From a virus (lineage: Duplodnaviria; Heunggongvirae; Uroviricota; Caudoviricetes), in IMG/VR virus record IMGVR_UViG_2541047945_000012: DNA of 7,139 nucleotides; one strand, given 5' to 3'. Every line of letters begins with the position of its first letter. Position 1 is the first letter of the stretch. Under the pieces are notes generated by a model, which worked only from the letters and a program-made list of their open reading frames with translations, made no database searches and had not been told where the DNA came from. The position numbers and the translations under genes are program-made. Below are positions 1 to 7,139 of this stretch, piece by piece.

Positions 1-516
1 ATGAAATTTAAAAAATGTCTTCTGCCTGTGGCAATGTTAGCGTCATTCACTCTGGCAGGATGCCAGTCAAATGCTGACGATCATGCTGCCGATGTTTATC
101 AAACCGATCAACTGAATACCAAACAAGAAACTAAAACCGTTAATATTATTTCCATTCTTCCCGCAAAAGTTGCCGTAGACAACTCCCAAAATAAACGGAA
201 CGCACAAGCCTTCGGCGCGCTTATTGGCGCAGTCGCTGGCGGTGTTATCGGCCACAACGTCGGGTCTGGCAGCAATTCCGGAACGACGGCAGGTGCAGTT
301 GGCGGCGGAGCTGTAGGCGCGGCAGCGGGTTCTATGGTGAATGATAAAACCTTAGTGGAAGGTGTTTCTTTAACCTATAAGGAAGGCACCAAAGTGTATA
401 CCTCTACCCAGGTGGGTAAAGAGTGCCAGTTTACGACAGGTTTAGCCGTTGTTATTACCACGACGTATAACGAAACGCGTATTCAGCCAAATACCAAATG
501 TCCTGAAAAGAGCTAA
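1..516 (+). CDS. yfgH: Outer-membrane lipoprotein with a glycine-zipper (YcfJ / 17-kDa-antigen-like) segment; YfgH-like
   Basis: ATG at 1, stop at 514-516, 171 aa. Lipoprotein signal peptide MKFKKCLLPVAMLASFTLAG-C with lipobox LAGC and Gln at +2. Gly/Ala-rich block GALIGAVAGGVIGHNVGSGSNSGTTAGAVGGGAVGAAAG resembles glycine-zipper lipoproteins. Symbol is from my recollection of E. coli yfgH-yfgI-guaA synteny and protein size, not from a search. Upstream signals lie outside the window. Confidence 0.8.
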   Translation: MKFKKCLLPVAMLASFTLAGCQSNADDHAADVYQTDQLNTKQETKTVNIISILPAKVAVDNSQNKRNAQAFGALIGAVAGGVIGHNVGSGSNSGTTAGAVGGGAVGAAAGSMVNDKTLVEGVSLTYKEGTKVYTSTQVGKECQFTTGLAVVITTTYNETRIQPNTKCPEKS

Positions 517-531
517 TAATCAGGAGGAGTC

Positions 532-1071
532 ATGAAGAAAGTTTTTCTTTGCGCCATCTTAGCCTCCTTAAGCTATCCGGCTATCGCCTCATCATTGCAG
601 GATCAACTCTCTGCTGTCGCAGAAGCGGAACAGCAAGGTAAAAATGAAGAGCAAAGGCAGCATGACGAATGGGTCGCGGAGCGCAACAGGGAAATCCAGC
701 AAGAGAAGCAACGTCGCGCAAATGCCCAGGCCGCCGCTAACAAAAGAGCGGCAACGGCAGCGGCAAATAAGAAAGCTCGTCAGGATAAACTGGACGCCGA
801 AGCCTCTGCGGACAAAAAACGCGATCAAAGTTATGAAGATGAGCTACGCAGCTTAGAGATTCAGAAACAAAAACTGGCGCTGGCGAAAGAAGAAGCCCGC
901 GTTAAGCGAGAAAACGAATTTATCGATCAGGAACTGAAGCACAAAGCTGCGCAAACCGATGTGGTGCAATCTGAAGCTGACGCCAACAGAAATATGACTG
1001 AAGGCGGTCGCGATCTGATGAAAAGCGTGGGCAAAGCAGAAGAGAACAAATCGGACAGCTGGTTTAATTAA
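532..1071 (+). CDS. yfgI: Secreted Ala/Lys/Glu/Gln-rich coiled-coil periplasmic protein (TolA-domain-II-like composition); YfgI-like
   Basis: SD AGGAGGAG at 521-528, ATG at 532, TAA at 1069-1071, 179 aa. Sec-type signal peptide MKKVFLCAILASLSYPAIA-SS. Mature part is strongly charged and low-complexity (AANKRAATAAANKKARQDKLDAEA...). Symbol is tentative, from recalled synteny and size only. Confidence 0.8.
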   Translation: MKKVFLCAILASLSYPAIASSLQDQLSAVAEAEQQGKNEEQRQHDEWVAERNREIQQEKQRRANAQAAANKRAATAAANKKARQDKLDAEASADKKRDQSYEDELRSLEIQKQKLALAKEEARVKRENEFIDQELKHKAAQTDVVQSEADANRNMTEGGRDLMKSVGKAEENKSDSWFN

Positions 1072-1110
1072 TCGATGTTAGTAACTTCAATCCTATAATT
1101 CTTGAAGATA

Positions 1111-1142
1111 AAAAACCCTCTGTAGTAACAGAGGGTTTTGTT
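1111..1142. terminator. Bidirectional rho-independent terminator
   Basis: Perfect 8-bp stem CCCTCTGT (1116-1123) / ACAGAGGG (1128-1135) with 4-nt loop AGTA, flanked by A5 (1111-1115) and T4 plus GTT (1136-1142). It lies 40 bp after the yfgI-like stop and between the convergent gene sets. Confidence 0.75.
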
Positions 1143-1163
1143 CATTCATAGTGCAGGGTCAAA

Positions 1164-1181
1164 TCATTCCCACTCAATTAT
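1164..1181 (-). other. guaA: Orphan 3'-terminal codons of guaA (GMP synthase), I-I-E-W-E-stop; candidate displaced att-side fragment
   Basis: Minus-strand codons ATA ATT GAG TGG GAA TGA (1181..1164), preceded in frame by TAA (1184..1182). GMP synthases end in ...TIEWE (recalled, not searched). Position and convergent orientation relative to the yfgI-like gene match recalled E. coli K-12 synteny. Only 4-5 codons long, so the call is weak taken alone. Confidence 0.4.
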
Positions 1182-1207
1182 TTACGACAATCATAACTAA
1201 TTGAGTG
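1171..1207. repeat. Perfect 10-bp inverted repeat CACTCAATTA / TAATTGAGTG with 17-bp spacer, overlapping the guaA terminal codons
   Basis: 1171-1180 cactcaatta and 1198-1207 taattgagtg are exact reverse complements. Located at the inferred host/prophage boundary. Confidence 0.6.
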
Positions 1208-1288
1208 ATAACATTTTTCCAAAACTTCATTTTTCTAGTACCGTTTTATATACCGTCACCGGAAATCAGTACCATGAAAAATGCCATG

Positions 1289-1771
1289 CTATCTGGTCAG
1301 GGTGTCGTATTGTTTTTCGCAGACTCTTCCGGCTTCGGCTGCCCGGTCAGCATACTCTGCCAGTTGTCTGTTTCTCTCGAGAGATTTGCTGAGCACGTCG
1401 GCAAGCAAAACTCCGGTGTCTGCGGCTGACGTCCCAGCGCCGACAATGGCGTTATACTGCCTGAGCTGCTCACGGATGGCAAAGAGTTGTTGCTGCAACC
1501 GGCCAGCGCGAGCGGCAGCATCAAGAGCATCATTGCGCGCCTGGTCGATCCTCTGCTGCGCTTCACGTTCATTGATCGATTTCTCCTGTTCGTAGTGCTG
1601 ACGAACTATCTCATCTTCAGCTTTGCGGTCTTCCTTCGCCTGCGCATACCCGGCATCGTACTGACGACTGCCGTGTGCATTCCAGGCTACAACTCCTGAT
1701 ATGACCAGAACAGCAAGCATCGCCATGATAACCAACTGTTTCCAGTATGCTTTTGCGAATGCCCAGATCAT
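1289..1771 (-). CDS. Rz-like i-spanin (inner-membrane spanin subunit)
   Basis: ATG at 1771..1769 overlaps the endolysin stop (ATGA, 1768-1771); SD AGGTG 8 nt upstream; TAG at 1291..1289; 160 aa. N-terminal TM ([21 protein letters not shown]) followed by a charged, Gln/Arg/Glu/Ala-rich predicted coiled coil and a C-terminal Cys. Classic position after the endolysin. Confidence 0.85.
1297..1572 (-). CDS. Rz1-like o-spanin (outer-membrane lipoprotein), fully embedded in the +1 frame of Rz
   Basis: ATG at 1572..1570 with SD AGGAGA 9 nt upstream; 91 aa. Signal peptide [26 protein letters not shown] with lipobox LAGC. Mature part about 65 aa, Pro-rich (8 Pro) with two Cys. Stops 8 nt before the Rz stop. 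Confidence 0.8.
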   Translation of the reverse strand: MNVKRSRGSTRRAMMLLMLPLALAGCSNNSLPSVSSSGSITPLSALGRQPQTPEFCLPTCSANLSRETDNWQSMLTGQPKPEESAKNNTTP

Positions 1772-2397
1772 ACCGCCAGCACCTTACTGGCAGTTATGTA
1801 TCGCGCGCGCCGGTCATCAATGCCGTTCCGGCCACCATTGATAAGCAGAGTTACACGTGCAATATCTCCGGTATACTTCATGCAGCCTTTGCTGGAGAAG
1901 AACCACGCCGCGCTACGAGCCGCGTATTCGTCCTGCGCCAGCAGTTCAGGACTCTCCAGCAGGTCAACCTTAAGACCGTTTCCACAGTCACGATAGTTAT
2001 TCAAACCGGTAATCTGGATAAGTCCGCGCCCACGGTAGTTCCAGCCGTCACCAGGGGCATTGTTCCCCATGCGTTTGCTGTACACCAGATTGGCGATCGC
2101 TCGCTGGCGCTCGAGTGGCAATGGTGGCTCACCAGCACGTCGCCCCAGTGCATTAGCCTGCCCCTGAGTGAGACGCCCAGCCCGAACGAAGTTAGCCAGT
2201 CCGCTGACGCTGTAGTTGAAATTCTCCTGCAACCGGGTGAAGCCCACAGACTCATGCCCGACCTGAGCAATAAACATTGCCAGATCTTCTGGTTTGCTGA
2301 TACCAAACTCTTTCATCGCAGAAGTTATATGCGAGAACCAGCGTGCGGCCAGCGCCTCGCTAATACCAGCAGCTCGCTGGAATTGTTTAATCTCCAT
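1768..2397 (-). CDS. Endolysin, glycoside hydrolase family 19 (chitinase-fold lysozyme), cytoplasmic (no signal or SAR segment)
   Basis: ATG at 2397..2395 with SD GAGG 8 nt upstream; TGA at 1770..1768; 209 aa ([13 protein letters not shown]...). The ORF-track start at 2562 is an upstream extension without an RBS. Contains GH19-type catalytic motifs [10 protein letters not shown] and GRGLIQITG (compare plant chitinase HETG and RGPIQ(I/L)S motifs, from memory). Confidence 0.85.
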
Positions 2398-2695
2398 GTT
2401 TAGACCTCGATATTTTGAAAATCTGAACAACGTTACCGCGTGTTTTAATAACCGCGGCAAGCATGACAGCGTTGATAATGACCTCAGATAAATCCACAGC
2501 CATTGGCGTGCGTAACCAGATTGCATAAGCGACACGAACTGGAATGCTGGCCGCAGCAACAATCAGGAAATAAGCAAGCCACCCACCCCATCGCCTGTGT
2601 TGAGAACCGTTTCTCCGAAATGTGGCAACTCGAACTGCTATACCGGCGCAAATAACCGCATTGGTGATAAGCAAAAAAAGCTCATGAGTTACCAT
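2387..2695 (-). CDS. Small membrane protein between holin and endolysin (2-3 TM; candidate antiholin, second holin or lysis regulator)
   Basis: ATG at 2695..2693 with SD GGGGAG 8 nt upstream; TAA at 2389..2387; 102 aa. Overlaps the holin 3' end by 14 bp and the endolysin start by 11 bp, suggesting translational coupling. TM1 [16 protein letters not shown], a highly basic loop ([15 protein letters not shown]), TM2 [22 protein letters not shown], and a possible short third hydrophobic segment. Confidence 0.7.
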
Positions 2696-3086
2696 CGTCT
2701 TTTCTCCCCGGAATTAACTCGCGTGGATTATCGGAACGGTGATAGAGCCAGATCCCAATTCGCACAGCGACGATTGCTGACACAAATGCACCGGCAGAGA
2801 AAACAATCCCTTTCTCGAAAGAATCCTGTGTGATTGTAGGGATCAGGCTGGCTATGCCGATAAGAATTGATGCTGCTGGTTTGTAGAATAGAAGTCCGCA
2901 GAGAAAGCTAAGCATCGACAAGAGCACGCGACGACGAATGGGATACTCTACCGCAGAGGTAACAAAAATCACCGCCCCAGCCAAAGACCCCAAAGCAACC
3001 TCAGGAGGAACTCCTGCTATCACTGCCGCCAAAGAACTCATGCTAAGCCACTGATTTAAAGTTTCACTGGTTAGTTGAGCTGACAT
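2682..3086 (-). CDS. Holin, class-I-like (three TM segments, charged C-terminal tail)
   Basis: ATG at 3086..3084 (MSAQLTSETLNQW...), preceded by GGTGG with a 5-nt spacer; an in-frame GTG at 3095 is the ORF-track start. TGA at 2684..2682; about 134 aa. Three hydrophobic segments (LAAVIAGVPPEVALGSLAGAVIFV; VLLSMLSFLCGLLFY...ILIGIASLI; IVFSAGAFVSAIVAVRIGIWLY) and a charged tail [19 protein letters not shown]. First gene of the lysis cluster. Confidence 0.75.
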   Translation of the reverse strand: MSAQLTSETLNQWLSMSSLAAVIAGVPPEVALGSLAGAVIFVTSAVEYPIRRRVLLSMLSFLCGLLFYKPAASILIGIASLIPTITQDSFEKGIVFSAGAFVSAIVAVRIGIWLYHRSDNPRELIPGRKDDGNS

Positions 3087-3143
3087 GTTTTCCACCGTTT
3101 ATATGCATAACTACCTCCTGAACAGTAAAGCATTACGCATGAT

Positions 3144-3159
3144 AAACCATTTATGGTTT
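3144..3159. promoter_or_regulatory. Perfect 16-bp palindrome AAACCAT-TT-ATGGTTT just downstream of the putative promoter (candidate operator or 5'-UTR hairpin)
   Basis: 7-bp arms are exact reverse complements with a 2-bp centre. Starts about 12 bp downstream of the -10 hexamer, so it overlaps the predicted transcription start region of the lysis operon. Confidence 0.45.
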
Positions 3160-3170
3160 TTTGTTACCCA

Positions 3171-3199
3171 ATATTACCAATCCAATTCGCGATGGTCAA
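3171..3199 (-). promoter_or_regulatory. Candidate sigma70 promoter for the lysis operon: TTGACC - 17 nt - TAATAT, with TGn extended -10
   Basis: On the minus strand, -35 TTGACC (3199..3194), 17-nt spacer, -10 TAATAT (3176..3171) preceded by TGG. AT-rich upstream. Predicted start near 3164, about 78 nt upstream of the holin ATG. Confidence 0.45.
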
Positions 3200-3451
3200 A
3201 ACATATCCACAGCGGTAAGTTTGAGTGTTTTCATTTCCAAAACTTTATACAATAATATATGCAGTCTGTTATTTTTACGCACAATAAAAACACGATACCA
3301 GCTATTTCGCCATAAATACAATTTCCTTTAATGCTGCCAACAGTGCCTGCAAAACATATAACAGAACACATAAATAACAGGCATAATATAGATTTAATAA
3401 TCCAAGTGCATATAAATATCATTTAAGAAGTTAAGATCATTATTATAATAA

Positions 3452-3483
3452 CAATAACCCCGCTGTTTTATTCGGGGTTATTG
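3452..3483. terminator. Hairpin terminator downstream of the tail fibre gene
   Basis: Stem AACCCCG (3456-3462) / CGGGGTT (3473-3479), extendable to 11 bp, with a 10-nt loop. On the minus strand it is followed by a U-rich tract (TTATTATAATA). It begins 10 bp after the tail fibre stop (3493-3495). Confidence 0.5.
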
Positions 3484-3492
3484 CATTTATTA

Positions 3493-4029
3493 TTACATTG
3501 ACATTAATATAAACATGGCTAATTCGTCATAACGAATTCCGTAGCGTCCTCCTGCTTTTTTTACAAGAATCATATCTCCTGTTTTATATTGAGAATAAAT
3601 TTTCTCACCTGTATCAGGATCTGTGCTCTCTTCAGTTATCACCTCTTCATCCCATACGTCAGGCCATTCATCGTAACACCAAAAAGCATATTGCTCAGGG
3701 TTTAAACCATGCTTTCTAAGAATATCCCCTACGGTTTGAGCGCCAACGCCAAAATGATACCTGGACGACTCAATTCCTTTGTGATTAATTGAGTCATTAA
3801 ATTTAAATTTATAGATGACTGACTTTATTTCAATAGCGGCATCACGCTCTGCATTAAGAATATCATATCTTGTTTTAAGAGTTTCATCTGACGTATTGAT
3901 TGACCCGGTTCCTGCATAGATAACAGAGCATCTGTTTGATGGCTGTCCAATAGCTTTAACATTATCATCAACAGGAGCTATTTTATTAGCATCTGCCAAC
4001 CACCAGTCTGTTCCATCAGCGTGACCGAT
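3493..4029 (-). pseudogene. Tail fibre/tailspike gene, C-terminal fragment (distal to the IS2 insertion) including an intramolecular-chaperone-like domain
   Basis: In frame with fragment 5361-6914 once IS2 and one copy of the 5-bp duplication are removed. TAA at 3495..3493. Encodes ...GHADGTDWWLADANKIAPVDD...SINTSDETLKTRYDIL...GGRYGIRYDELAMFILMSM. The first 9 codons of ORF-track entry 3493..4056 are IS2-derived. Confidence 0.8.
4025..4029. repeat. IS2 target-site duplication, copy 1 (CCGAT)
   Basis: ccgat immediately flanks the IS2 end at 4030; identical to 5361-5365. Confidence 0.85.
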
Positions 4030-4040
4030 TGGATTTGCCC

Positions 4041-4946
4041 CTATATTTCCAGACATCTGTTATCACTTAACCCATTACAAGCCCGCTGCCGCAGATATTC
4101 CCGTGGCGAGCGATAACCCAGCGCACTATGCGGATGCCATTCGTTATAATGCTCGAACGCCTCTGCAAGGTTCTTTGCTGCCGTTAACCCGTCTGGTTTG
4201 GGCATGATACTGATGTAGTCACGCTTTATCGTTTTCACGAAGCTCTCTGCTATTCCGTTACTCTCCGGACTCCGCACCGCCGTGTTCTTCGGTTCAAGTC
4301 CCAACATCCGGGCGAACTGGCGTGTTTCATTAGCCCGGTAGCATGAACCATTATCCGTCAGCCACTCCACTGGAGACGACGGAAGATCGTTGCCGAAGCG
4401 GCGTTCCACCGCTCCCAGCATGACGTCCTGTACTGTTTCACTGTTGAAGCCGCCGGTAGTGACCGCCCAGTGCAGTGCCTCACGATCACAGCAGTCCAGC
4501 GCGAACGTGACACGCAGTCTCTCTCCGTTATCACAGCAGAACTCGAACCCGTCAGAGCACCATCGCTGATTGCTTTCTTTCACGGCCACTCTGCCTGTAT
4601 GTGCCCGTTTCGATGGCGGTACAGCAGGTTTTCGCTCAAGCAACAGCGCATTCTGGCGCATGATCCGGTAAACACGTTTGGCATTGATCGCAGGCATACC
4701 ATCAAGTTCTGCCTGTCTGCGAAGCAGCGCCCATACCCGACGATAACCATACGTTGGCAGCTCTCCGATAACATGGTGTATACGGAGAAGCACATCCGTA
4801 TCATCAGTGTGACGACTGCGGCGGCCATCCATCCAGTCATCGGTTCGTCTGAGAATGACGTGCAACTGCGCACGCGACACCCGGAGACAACGGCTGACTA
4901 AGCTTACTCCCCATCCCCGGGCAATAAGGGCGCGTGCGCTATCCAC
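4041..4946 (-). CDS. insD: IS2 transposase OrfB (InsD; DDE catalytic domain), normally made as an OrfAB fusion by -1 frameshift
   Basis: 301-aa [37 protein letters not shown]...[11 protein letters not shown], recognised as IS2 InsD. Overlaps insC in the -1 frame at the A6G site. Confidence 0.9.
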
Positions 4947-5269
4947 TTTTTTGCCCGTCCATATTCAACGGCTTCTTTGAGGAGTTCATTTTCCATCGTT
5001 TTCTTGCCGAGCAGGCGCTGGAGTTCTTTAATCTGCTTCATGGCGGCAGCAAGTTCAGAGGCAGGAACAACCTGTTCTCCGGCGGCGACAGCAGTAAGAC
5101 TTCCTTCCTGGTATTGCTTACGCCAGAGAAATAACTGGCTGGCTGCTACACCATGTTGCCGGGCAACGAGGGAGACCGTCATCCCCGGTTCAAAGCTCTG
5201 CTGAACAATTGCGATCTTTTCCTGTGTGGTACGCCGTCTGCGTTTCTCCGGCCCTAAGACATCAATCAT
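4904..5269 (-). CDS. insC: IS2 OrfA (InsC; helix-turn-helix DNA-binding/regulatory protein)
   Basis: ATG at 5269..5267 with SD GGAG 5 nt upstream; 121 aa [41 protein letters not shown]... The ORF-track start at 5314 is an upstream extension. Confidence 0.9.
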
Positions 5270-5360
5270 CTGTTCTCCAATGACTAGTCTAAAAACTAGT
5301 ATTAAGACTATCACTTATTTAAGTGATATTGGTTGTCTGGAGATTCAGGGGGCCAGTCTA

Positions 5361-5365
5361 CCGAT
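5361..5365. repeat. IS2 target-site duplication, copy 2 (CCGAT)
   Basis: ccgat immediately after the IS2 end at 5360; identical to 4025-4029. Confidence 0.85.
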
Positions 5366-6914
5366 TCTTACTCTTATCCCACTTCTAATATTTAAACTTC
5401 CAGTATTACTCTGTAAATTACAATCTCCTGAAGTTGGTCCAAGCAGTACAGTTTTACCAACACCACATACTACTCTGGCATTTCCTTTTTGTGATACGAG
5501 TCTTGACTCACCTCCTGACTGCTCAGGAAGAGATTTATGGTCTACAAATGCATCGCGGGGGTTAAATACACCGTCTCCAGAATTATATCTTCCTCCTGTA
5601 TAGTTGTTAAATACAGGACCCCAGTCAACGCCATTGCCTTCAGAGCACCCGACCATTCTAAGCACTCGAGTATTCCCTGCTGCATATGGTAATGAGCTTG
5701 TTGATTGCCTGGAAGCTATCATACGTGCTCCATAACCAATAGCATTACCACCATTTATAGTTACATATGCTGGCTGGCTTTCGAAATATGTACTGTAAAA
5801 GTTCATATTTCCACAGTCATGTAGATGAATAAGAACATCATCCCATCCCTGAATGGTTCCTGCATGTACCTGTACACCGCGAACTGGTTCCCCTGAAACC
5901 TCCATACACTCTGATGGCCGGCTGAATGGCTGAGACAGGTATTGCGATGTGGCAAGCAGATGTGTGTGGTGATACAGGCTGGTAATGTAGCAATCGAAAA
6001 ATTGCGTTCCCGCCATACCAAAGTTATCTATGTCATTTCGCCGTATAGTAGAACCTACTGTTGCCTCAGAAGCGTTAGACACTCCAGTAAATACTAACTT
6101 ATCACCGGATACGGATAATCCTGAATAAGTGAAATTCCTGCCTCCCGATCTTAAAACCCCGGACGTTTCGAAGGTGTGGCTTGATGACCATGGGATTTCG
6201 ATAGTGCTGGACGTTACCGCTGTAATTCGGAATACATCATGGGCGCGGATCGAAACACCCTTGAATCCCTGGAATCTACAGTGATAATAGTTTTCATCCT
6301 CGCCCTGAGCGGCCAGCGTGCCAGATACAGGAATGTTCGTTTTTAAAAGTGCCGTCTTGCGCCAGTATCCAACCACCTGCAAATTGCGGTATTCATTGCC
6401 AAAAGACGCACGTGACCAAATACCTACATCCCACTCATCGCCAAGACCGGTATTTGCAATGTCTTTATAACCATCCAGCCCATTGAAATATGGAACAATA
6501 CGAAAGTTCTCAAGGCGAACACATCCTGTCTCTGGCATCAATATTGCGGCAGAGAATGGTTTAAGCGTGGCTCTTGTAGCCCCATTAGCATCACCGTTAG
6601 TAAAATCCAATAAATCATATGATGACGCAGGTGCCGTTGTTGTATACGGGTCTTCGGAAGATGGATTAGAAACCACACCACCACTAACATCCATATTAGA
6701 AACACAATCTACAGTATATTTTTTATTTCCTACACCGTACATCAGGAATGTGGTCCCTGTGGTAATATCAGGAGCAAATGTTGCAGTATATCCAGAGACC
6801 CATTTGCCCACACCAAGACCAATTATCCCACCACCAGAAACAGGTGTTAACGTATCCGTTATTACATACGCATTATCAGTACCATAAATAACCTTTCCTG
6901 TGTTAATGGCAGCT
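5361..6914 (-). pseudogene. Tail fibre/tailspike gene, central fragment between the IS3-family element and IS2; 5' end missing
   Basis: Open frame of about 517 codons running from the IS3-family terminus (6915) to the IS2 terminus. Gly/Ser/Thr/Asn/Tyr-rich, as in receptor-binding fibre or spike bodies. No credible start codon or RBS inside the fragment, so the N-terminal part must lie beyond the IS element. Codons 1-61 of the 584-aa ORF-track entry are out-of-frame readthrough of the IS transposase. Confidence 0.7.
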
Positions 6915-7139
6915 TGAACCGCCCCGGGTTTCCTGGAGAGTATTTTATCTGTGAACTCAGGCTGCCAGATCATCGTTTCCGATGGAAGCATAATAAGCTT
7001 TTTCTGCTTCTGCCGGAGGAGTATGGCCCAGCCTTTCCAGCAATCGTCGATTGTTATACCAGTCCACCCACGTGAGTGTGGCCAGTTCCACTTCTGCACG
7101 GTTTTTCCAGCTCTTACGGTGTATTACCTCCGCTTTGTA
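6915..7139 (-). mobile_element. IS3-family insertion sequence (IS629/IS1203-like), partial; right end only, continuing beyond the window
   Basis: Terminal sequence on the plus strand from 6915: TGAACCGCCCCGGGTTTCCTGGAGAGTATTTTATCTGTGAACTCAGG, the TG...-type IS3-family end that I recall for IS629. It is followed by the transposase OrfB C-terminus. Exact IS identity not verified. Confidence 0.7.
6957..7139 (-). CDS. IS3-family transposase OrfB, C-terminal 60 codons (5'-truncated by window edge)
   Basis: Minus-strand translation ...YKAEVIHRKSWKNRAEVELATLTWVDWYNNRRLLERLGHTPPAEAEKAYYASIGNDDLAA-stop, with TGA at 6959..6957. This is a typical C-terminal tail of an IS3-family DDE transposase. Confidence 0.75.
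   Translation of the reverse strand, partial: YKAEVIHRKSWKNRAEVELATLTWVDWYNNRRLLERLGHTPPAEAEKAYYASIGNDDLAA

Follow-up and report, generated by a model that had tools for sequence, protein, structure and literature searches.

The chaperone domain described here belongs to a family whose mechanism has been worked out in a small number of proteins (PMC4690869, PMC8326128). In the phage K1F endosialidase endoNF and in pb1 of phage T5 the Ser-Lys dyad (S911/K916 and S1264/K1269, respectively) was defined experimentally (PMC8326128, PMC4690869), and in both proteins the serine departs with the chaperone, the scissile bond being the Thr-Ser bond on the N-terminal side of that serine (PMC4690869). 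The T5 residue preceding the serine is Thr1263, and a further residue, Arg1250, is contributed by the neighbouring chain and makes cleavage depend on a correctly folded trimer (PMC4690869). A Ser-Lys dyad mechanism is also found in MyRF, a eukaryotic membrane-bound transcription factor in which cleavage is independent of the upstream stalk (PMC8326128). The closest solved relative of the protein considered here is PDB entry 7Y5S, the depolymerase, or tail fibre, of Klebsiella phage Kp7; both are beta-helix tailspike-type proteins of podovirus-like phages (PMC12737672).

The DNA that we analysed (hereafter the window) is a stretch of 7,139 nucleotides from IMG/VR record IMGVR_UViG_2541047945_000012, and is 100% identical to scaffold KE702418.1 (assembly GCA_000461395.1). 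It very probably carries the C-terminal intramolecular chaperone domain (CIMCD) of a prophage tailspike whose gene has been split in three by the insertion sequences IS629 and IS2. A preliminary description of this DNA had placed an S74-like, self-cleaving chaperone domain of roughly 130 residues at 3493–3891, leaving the strand unstated, and had described it as the end of a tail fibre. The sequence quoted there is indeed found at that place. Translated on the minus strand, it encodes 132 residues and a stop (SDETLKTRYDILNAERDAAIEIK...GGRYGIRYDELAMFILMSM, then the stop codon), starting with SDETLKTRYDIL and ending with GGRYGIRYDELAMFILMSM, or SDETLK...FILMSM in brief, with SINT just upstream in the same open reading frame (ORF). 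That frame is a 187-aa ORF at 3493–4056 (minus strand) which forms the 3′ fragment of the tailspike gene. The CIMCD, delimited by Pfam, phmmer searches of the PDB, conservation and AF2/Foldseek comparison, occupies 3496–3891 (minus), equivalent to ORF residues S56-M187 and to residues 860-991 of the intact tailspike, with Ser56 and Lys61 (S-D-E-T-L-K) as its dyad; the stop codon of the tailspike gene is at 3493–3495 (minus).

Profile searches bear out the S74 assignment. Pfam PF13884 (Peptidase_S74, 'chaperone of endosialidase'; cut-off 22 bits) matches ORF residues 56-118 with 26.3 bits (E=9.5e-6), the match covering profile positions 1-58 of 58 and beginning exactly at the serine. Directly before it, residues 21-55 match the last 35 positions of PF12219 (End_tail_spike, endosialidase tailspike), and PF13884 hits are precomputed for most homologues. 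The Pfam E value is modest, and the full-length intact homologue scores a marginal 21.9 bits, 0.1 bit under the gathering score, as the PF13884 model extends over no more than the first 58 residues of the domain. On these numbers one might argue that S-D-x-x-L-K is a chance resemblance in an unrelated C-terminal domain of a tail protein, a reading to which we give a negligible probability and which is refuted by the PDB, PHROG and fold evidence, all of it independent of the PF13884 model. A phmmer search of the PDB with the 187-aa ORF matches 7Y5S across 170 residues (query residues 15-184, 4.5e-23), followed by significant matches to five other CIMCD-bearing chains (9VVR, 2e-15; 3GW6, 2e-14; 4UW8, 6e-12; 6EU4 and 3GUD), and tail spike and tail fibre families of PHROG give E values as low as 2.7e-84. 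The fold search returns CIMCD structures only, and the dyad is invariant among homologues. The match is far beyond chance, and the domain is a true member of the S74/CIMCD family, in which we observed every defining feature that can be tested at the level of sequence and structure.

The residues expected to carry out and control cleavage are in place. The segment GSINTSDETLKT aligns with GTINTSDARLKT in 7Y5S, with GTINTADARLKN in T5 pb1 (crystallised as S1264A) and with NPIVTANGERKT in K1F endoNF (S911A), which puts S56 and K61 at the positions of the dyad, S911/K916 in endoNF and S1264/K1269 in pb1, in the same S-x4-K arrangement. In the alignments to 3GW6, 4UW8 and 7Y5S the dyad serine position is the one mutated in the structure and the lysine is present, S56 and K61 lining up in each. 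The query also has the threonine preceding the serine and the arginine sensor about 14 residues upstream of it: R42, the Arg of PSNRC, aligns with 4UW8 chain residue 281, which is T5 Arg1250. Among 40-41 homologues of 32-75% identity, Thr55, Ser56 and Lys61 never vary; Arg42 and Asp57 occur in at least 90%. The preliminary description had named two outcomes that would count against its assignment, the lack of a profile hit and a Ser/Asp motif out of register with the catalytic or cleavage positions, and neither was found: PF13884 is above its cut-off in the window fragment, and the motif aligns with both the K1F and the T5 dyad. The likeness to those two proteins is confirmed at 2e-14 (3GW6) and 6e-12 (4UW8).

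An AF2 model of the monomer, built on the homologue alignment, further supports this placement. Model residues 50-176 have pLDDT values of at least 95 (block means) and form a mixed alpha/beta body with a long beta-hairpin (strands 115-163) and a C-terminal helix (165-175). Model residues 1-44, the stalk stub, have low pLDDT, as expected when a segment that needs the trimer to fold is modelled as a monomer. Searched with Foldseek against the PDB at E<0.02, the model retrieves 3GW6 as the top match, 4UW8, 3GUD and MyRF 7DC3 and nothing else, with noise thereafter.

As a domain, the module is already known in kind, and nothing in it departs from K1F, T5 pb1, Kp7 and related proteins. With the Kp7 protein it shares an identical INTSD..LKT motif, the arginine sensor and the C-terminal RY.(I/F)R.D.L..FI helix, but their bodies upstream of the stalk are unrelated, in the beta-hairpin region the query carries an acidic insertion about 19 residues longer (EESTDPDTGEKIYSQYKTGDM), and the copy in the window is disrupted by insertion sequences. 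EndoNF (3GW6; PF13884, MEROPS S74), the top structural match, has the same order of parts, a PF12219 stalk end and then PF13884, at about 28% identity and with the motif TS(A)NGERK where the query has TSDETLK; the passenger of the query shows no match to the catalytic part of endoNF and, unlike endoNF, is not a sialidase. T5 pb1 (4UW8; Foldseek 1.3e-9) aligns with the query at S1264/K1269, at the threonine before the serine and at Arg1250, yet pb1 is the long, bullet-tipped fibre of a siphovirus, whereas the query belongs to a beta-helix prophage tailspike. The ICA domain of MyRF (7DC3) has the fold in common with the query (Foldseek probability 0.99) at about 14% identity.

The parent protein is best seen where the gene is whole. 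Other E. coli prophages carry, at the same site by yfgH-yfgI, an intact tailspike gene of 991 codons; its product WP_089552410.1 is the uninterrupted version of the query, from the same chromosomal site and with 99.6-99.9% nucleotide identity. The intact protein matches phrog_1171, 'tail spike protein', from end to end. Over its N-terminal ~130 residues it is similar to the particle-binding domain of the Klebsiella phage Dpo31/Dpo36 tailspikes, over residues 221-270 to the tailspike chains 2VBE and 4URR, and over residues 251-336 to tailspikes annotated gp49 (PDB 4RU4) and gp27 (4RU5); Pfam has nothing for the beta-helix body or for the 313-aa N-terminal fragment. Given the phrog_1171 match, these likenesses and the prophage context, tailspike is a better name for the protein than the tail fibre of the preliminary description. 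In the intact orthologues, as in our reconstruction, the chaperone domain is residues 860-991 of 991 and follows the PF12219 stalk end.

In the window, by contrast with the intact loci, the gene is interrupted just upstream of the chaperone. IS2 has a canonical length of 1331 bp, two overlapping transposase ORFs and imperfect terminal inverted repeats, and makes a 5-bp target duplication. An IS3-family element of exactly this kind occupies 4030–5360 (minus strand, the orientation of the tailspike gene), is absent from the intact loci, and has the ends TGGATTTGCCCC... and TAGACTGGCCCCC..., annotated IS2 copies being found among the matches to the IS2 end. It spans 1331 bp and contains two transposase ORFs (4904–5314 and 4041–4946, both minus; Pfam HTH_Tnp_1, rve and rve_3), and junction alignment places a copy of the target duplication CCGAT on either side, at 4025–4029 and 5361–5365. 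Compared with E. coli EC21Z-151 (L001), which has the same neighbourhood, the window is collinear over 1–4030 and 5360–6916 with 1336 extra bases in between. The insertion lies at codon 815, 45 codons upstream of the serine, and breaks the frame between RVRIG and HADGTDWW, so that the fragment upstream of IS2 now ends RVRIGRLAP followed by a stop.

Downstream of the insertion, what is left of the stalk comprises the last 46 native residues before the cleavage site (3892–4029, minus; I10-T55 of the ORF, I814-T859 of the intact protein), as delimited by PF12219, the T5/K1F alignment and conservation. The first nine codons of the 187-aa ORF (MSGNIGANP; 4030–4056, minus), by contrast with these native residues, are IS2 terminal sequence that overlaps the end of IS2 orfB, I10 and G11 being native residues encoded by the duplicated target. 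We do not take the ATG of this ORF for a true start codon, since it falls within IS2 and overlaps the orfB end, and since no Shine-Dalgarno-like motif occurs in the sequence before it (GGGTTAAGTGATAACAGATG). The 187-aa ORF is a mechanical by-product, nine codons of IS2 joined to the tailspike gene's 3′ end.

A second element interrupts the gene further upstream. The 3′ (right) end of an IS629 copy, also of the IS3 family and 99.6% identical to annotated IS629 copies, lies at 6915–7139 (minus) and runs off the window, preceded at 6912–6914 by one copy of its target-site duplication (AGC on the minus strand). Taking the window and the scaffold (locus L003) together, both ends of the element (TGAACCGCCCCGG...) and the 3-bp AGC duplication are seen; the interior of the copy in the source scaffold holds a 1000-N assembly gap, and the element was identified from its ends. 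IS629 splits the tailspike gene after about codon 298. That the element (6917 onward) had deleted the N-terminal third of the gene was considered and rejected: in KE702418.1 the first 895 nt of the gene (its first 298 codons) lie on the far side of IS629, which marks a simple insertion with the 5′ part beyond. Between the two elements, 5361–6914 (minus) holds the middle fragment of the tailspike, about residues 298-815, comprising the beta-helix body and stalk (99.6% identity with the intact gene at nt 889-2445; phrog_33794 and phrog_1171). The 584-aa ORF called over this region (5345–7099, minus) is chimeric, with ~60 IS629 codons at its start and four of IS2 (RLAP) at its end; it reads the IS629 end in a frame other than that of the IS629 orfB C-terminus (ORF 6957–7091, minus). 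In the source assembly the fragments are called as three separate genes, of 313, 548 and 187 aa.

The source being a draft scaffold, with the gap just mentioned inside IS629, one may ask whether the organism has an intact gene, the elements being repeats misplaced in scaffolding. We hold this to be very unlikely. Both insertions have precise termini and exactly the target duplications that real transposition should leave (IS2, CCGAT, 5 bp; IS629, AGC, 3 bp); a mis-scaffolded repeat would not create target duplications, and the IS2 copy is contiguous and gap-free. Moreover, when both elements and one copy of each duplication are removed, a 2976-nt ORF of 991 codons, uninterrupted by any stop, is restored, and the reconstructed 991-aa protein differs from WP_089552410.1 at two positions, I754V and N876D. 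The restored frame together with the target duplications indicates that the insertions are real transposition events, that they are recent, and that they are the only lesions in the gene.

The consequence for the domain is that IS2 separates it from its body, which IS629 splits again, and no protein of the kind the preliminary description envisaged, a tail fibre with the domain at its end, is encoded here; the disruption by the two elements is a feature which that description overlooked. As the domain is not translated in one chain with the body, it is cut off from the beta-helix that it should fold. The lack of contiguity with its passenger reflects inactivation of the gene and not a domain from outside the family. 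From the structure of the gene we infer that the tailspike is a recently inactivated pseudogene, in three pieces, within a decaying prophage; residual expression of the fragments may occur.

A different view of the 187-aa ORF is that the IS2 insertion made a functional stand-alone gene, transcribed by read-through from the IS2 transposase genes, whose product (nine IS2 codons, a 46-residue stalk stub and the whole CIMCD) would trimerise, self-cleave and act in trans, for instance by entering mixed trimers with tailspikes from superinfecting phages bearing the same cassette and thereby poisoning their assembly. The ORF is indeed open, runs in the direction of the transposase genes, overlaps the orfB end with its ATG and is annotated as a gene in the source assembly, and the insertion has left the catalytic and sensor residues R42, T55, S56 and K61 all on its downstream side. 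From K1F, a similar construct of 275 residues, stalk plus CIMCD (3GW6), folds as a trimer alone, and near-identical cassettes occur on other E. coli prophage tailspikes. Against this, the ATG has no Shine-Dalgarno-like sequence and is simply the first to follow a stop within IS2; with one substitution in 176 residues relative to the intact gene, the insertion has the look of a recent one, and the fragment thus shows no sign of selection; and a second insertion sequence in the same gene points to plain decay. In addition, the exact IS2/tailspike junction is absent from GTDB species-representative genomes, and the exact 187-aa protein is on record in two contigs only. We put the chances of an independent gene very low; were it one, the 187-aa product would be an accidental superinfection-exclusion factor. 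The by-product of an inactivated tailspike gene is the reading that we adopt.

In the intact protein the domain would be expected to act as its relatives do, and by homology with the S74/CIMCD family we infer trimerisation, chaperone action and self-cleavage. In such a scheme the ~130-residue module of the 991-residue protein would trimerise via its C-terminal helix and would then nucleate or template the folding of the preceding triple-beta-helix stalk and of the beta-helix body. When the trimer has folded correctly, Lys865 would activate Ser860 to cut the Thr859-Ser860 bond, with Arg846 of the neighbouring chain as the folding sensor, and release of the chaperone would leave a kinetically stable mature spike. 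The preliminary description had the chain cleaved after the conserved serine, which needs correcting: in K1F and T5 the bond is the Thr-Ser bond before it (PMC4690869). We place the cut before the serine because the serine departs with the chaperone in T5 and K1F, and the end of mature endoNF is consistent with this, 1V0E terminating two residues past its alignment to query residue 53, that is, at query residue 55 (Thr55).

The same position marks a boundary of another kind. The P22-type tailspike WP_369003804.1, encoded in a prophage at the intS / tRNA-Arg site, has a Head_binding N-terminus, and its N-terminus and body are unlike the query. Nevertheless its gene (L005, 1425–3902) and window 3496–3891 are similar at the DNA level (~89%), the similarity starting at the serine codon. 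Amino-acid identity, counted from the alignment, is likewise about 89% after the serine, compared with about 39% in the 36 residues before it. This drop in identity at the serine indicates that the cassette has been exchanged, with a boundary near or at the cleavage site.

The tailspike gene is part of a prophage beside yfgH-yfgI, with a T7 gp14-family core protein upstream of it and a lysis cassette downstream. Nine nucleotides past the tailspike stop is a hairpin (3451–3484, minus; RNA fold -21.4 kcal/mol, z=-4.86) that has a 12-bp stem and a 10-nt loop and precedes a U/A-rich tract. It is probably the transcription terminator of the tailspike gene; a consensus terminator scan found no site in 3050–4150, its loop limit being 8 nt and the loop of this hairpin 10 nt. 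The hairpin sits in an AT-rich (29-35% GC), gene-free spacer of about 400 bp ahead of the holin genes. The lysis cassette includes, at 1768–3095 (minus), two different holin-family genes (PF16931, 2682–3095; PF05449, 2387–2695) and then a GH19 (chitinase-like) endolysin, for which the mechanical ORF 1768–2562 exceeds the length of the gene that related genomes have annotated, 209 aa. Also in the cassette is a DUF2514 gene (1289–1771, minus) that contains, in another frame, a 91-aa ORF (1297–1572, minus) with the lipoprotein signal LALAGC; the two are probably an o-spanin / i-spanin (Rz1/Rz-type) pair; the embedded ORF has no Pfam match. On the chromosomal side, yfgH (glycine-zipper lipoprotein) and yfgI (DUF5384), at window 1–1071 (plus strand), are core chromosomal genes, and similarity to phage record YDC107_2 begins at about 1162 and sets the boundary of the prophage between yfgI and the DUF2514 gene. 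In E. coli F2_407_2_2 this chromosomal site (L004, 4735–9033) is occupied by a related prophage, which carries gtrA (serotype-conversion genes) and another tail protein; the latter is likewise a pseudogene and abuts an IS3-family element. Tailspike genes at the yfgH-yfgI locus seem to have been struck repeatedly by insertion sequences.

The decay of prophages through insertion sequences is ordinary, and the locus has little significance beyond its correct annotation. That correction is a useful one: the 'genes' of 313, 548 and 187 aa are fragments of one 991-residue tailspike and should be annotated as a single pseudogene. As the gene is cut in three, the prophage cannot make its receptor-binding spike. 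With both target duplications intact and two substitutions in 991 codons, the locus is a clean, datable case of prophage decay by insertion sequences, and it also illustrates how a chaperone cassette is swapped between unrelated tailspikes with the boundary at the cleavage site.
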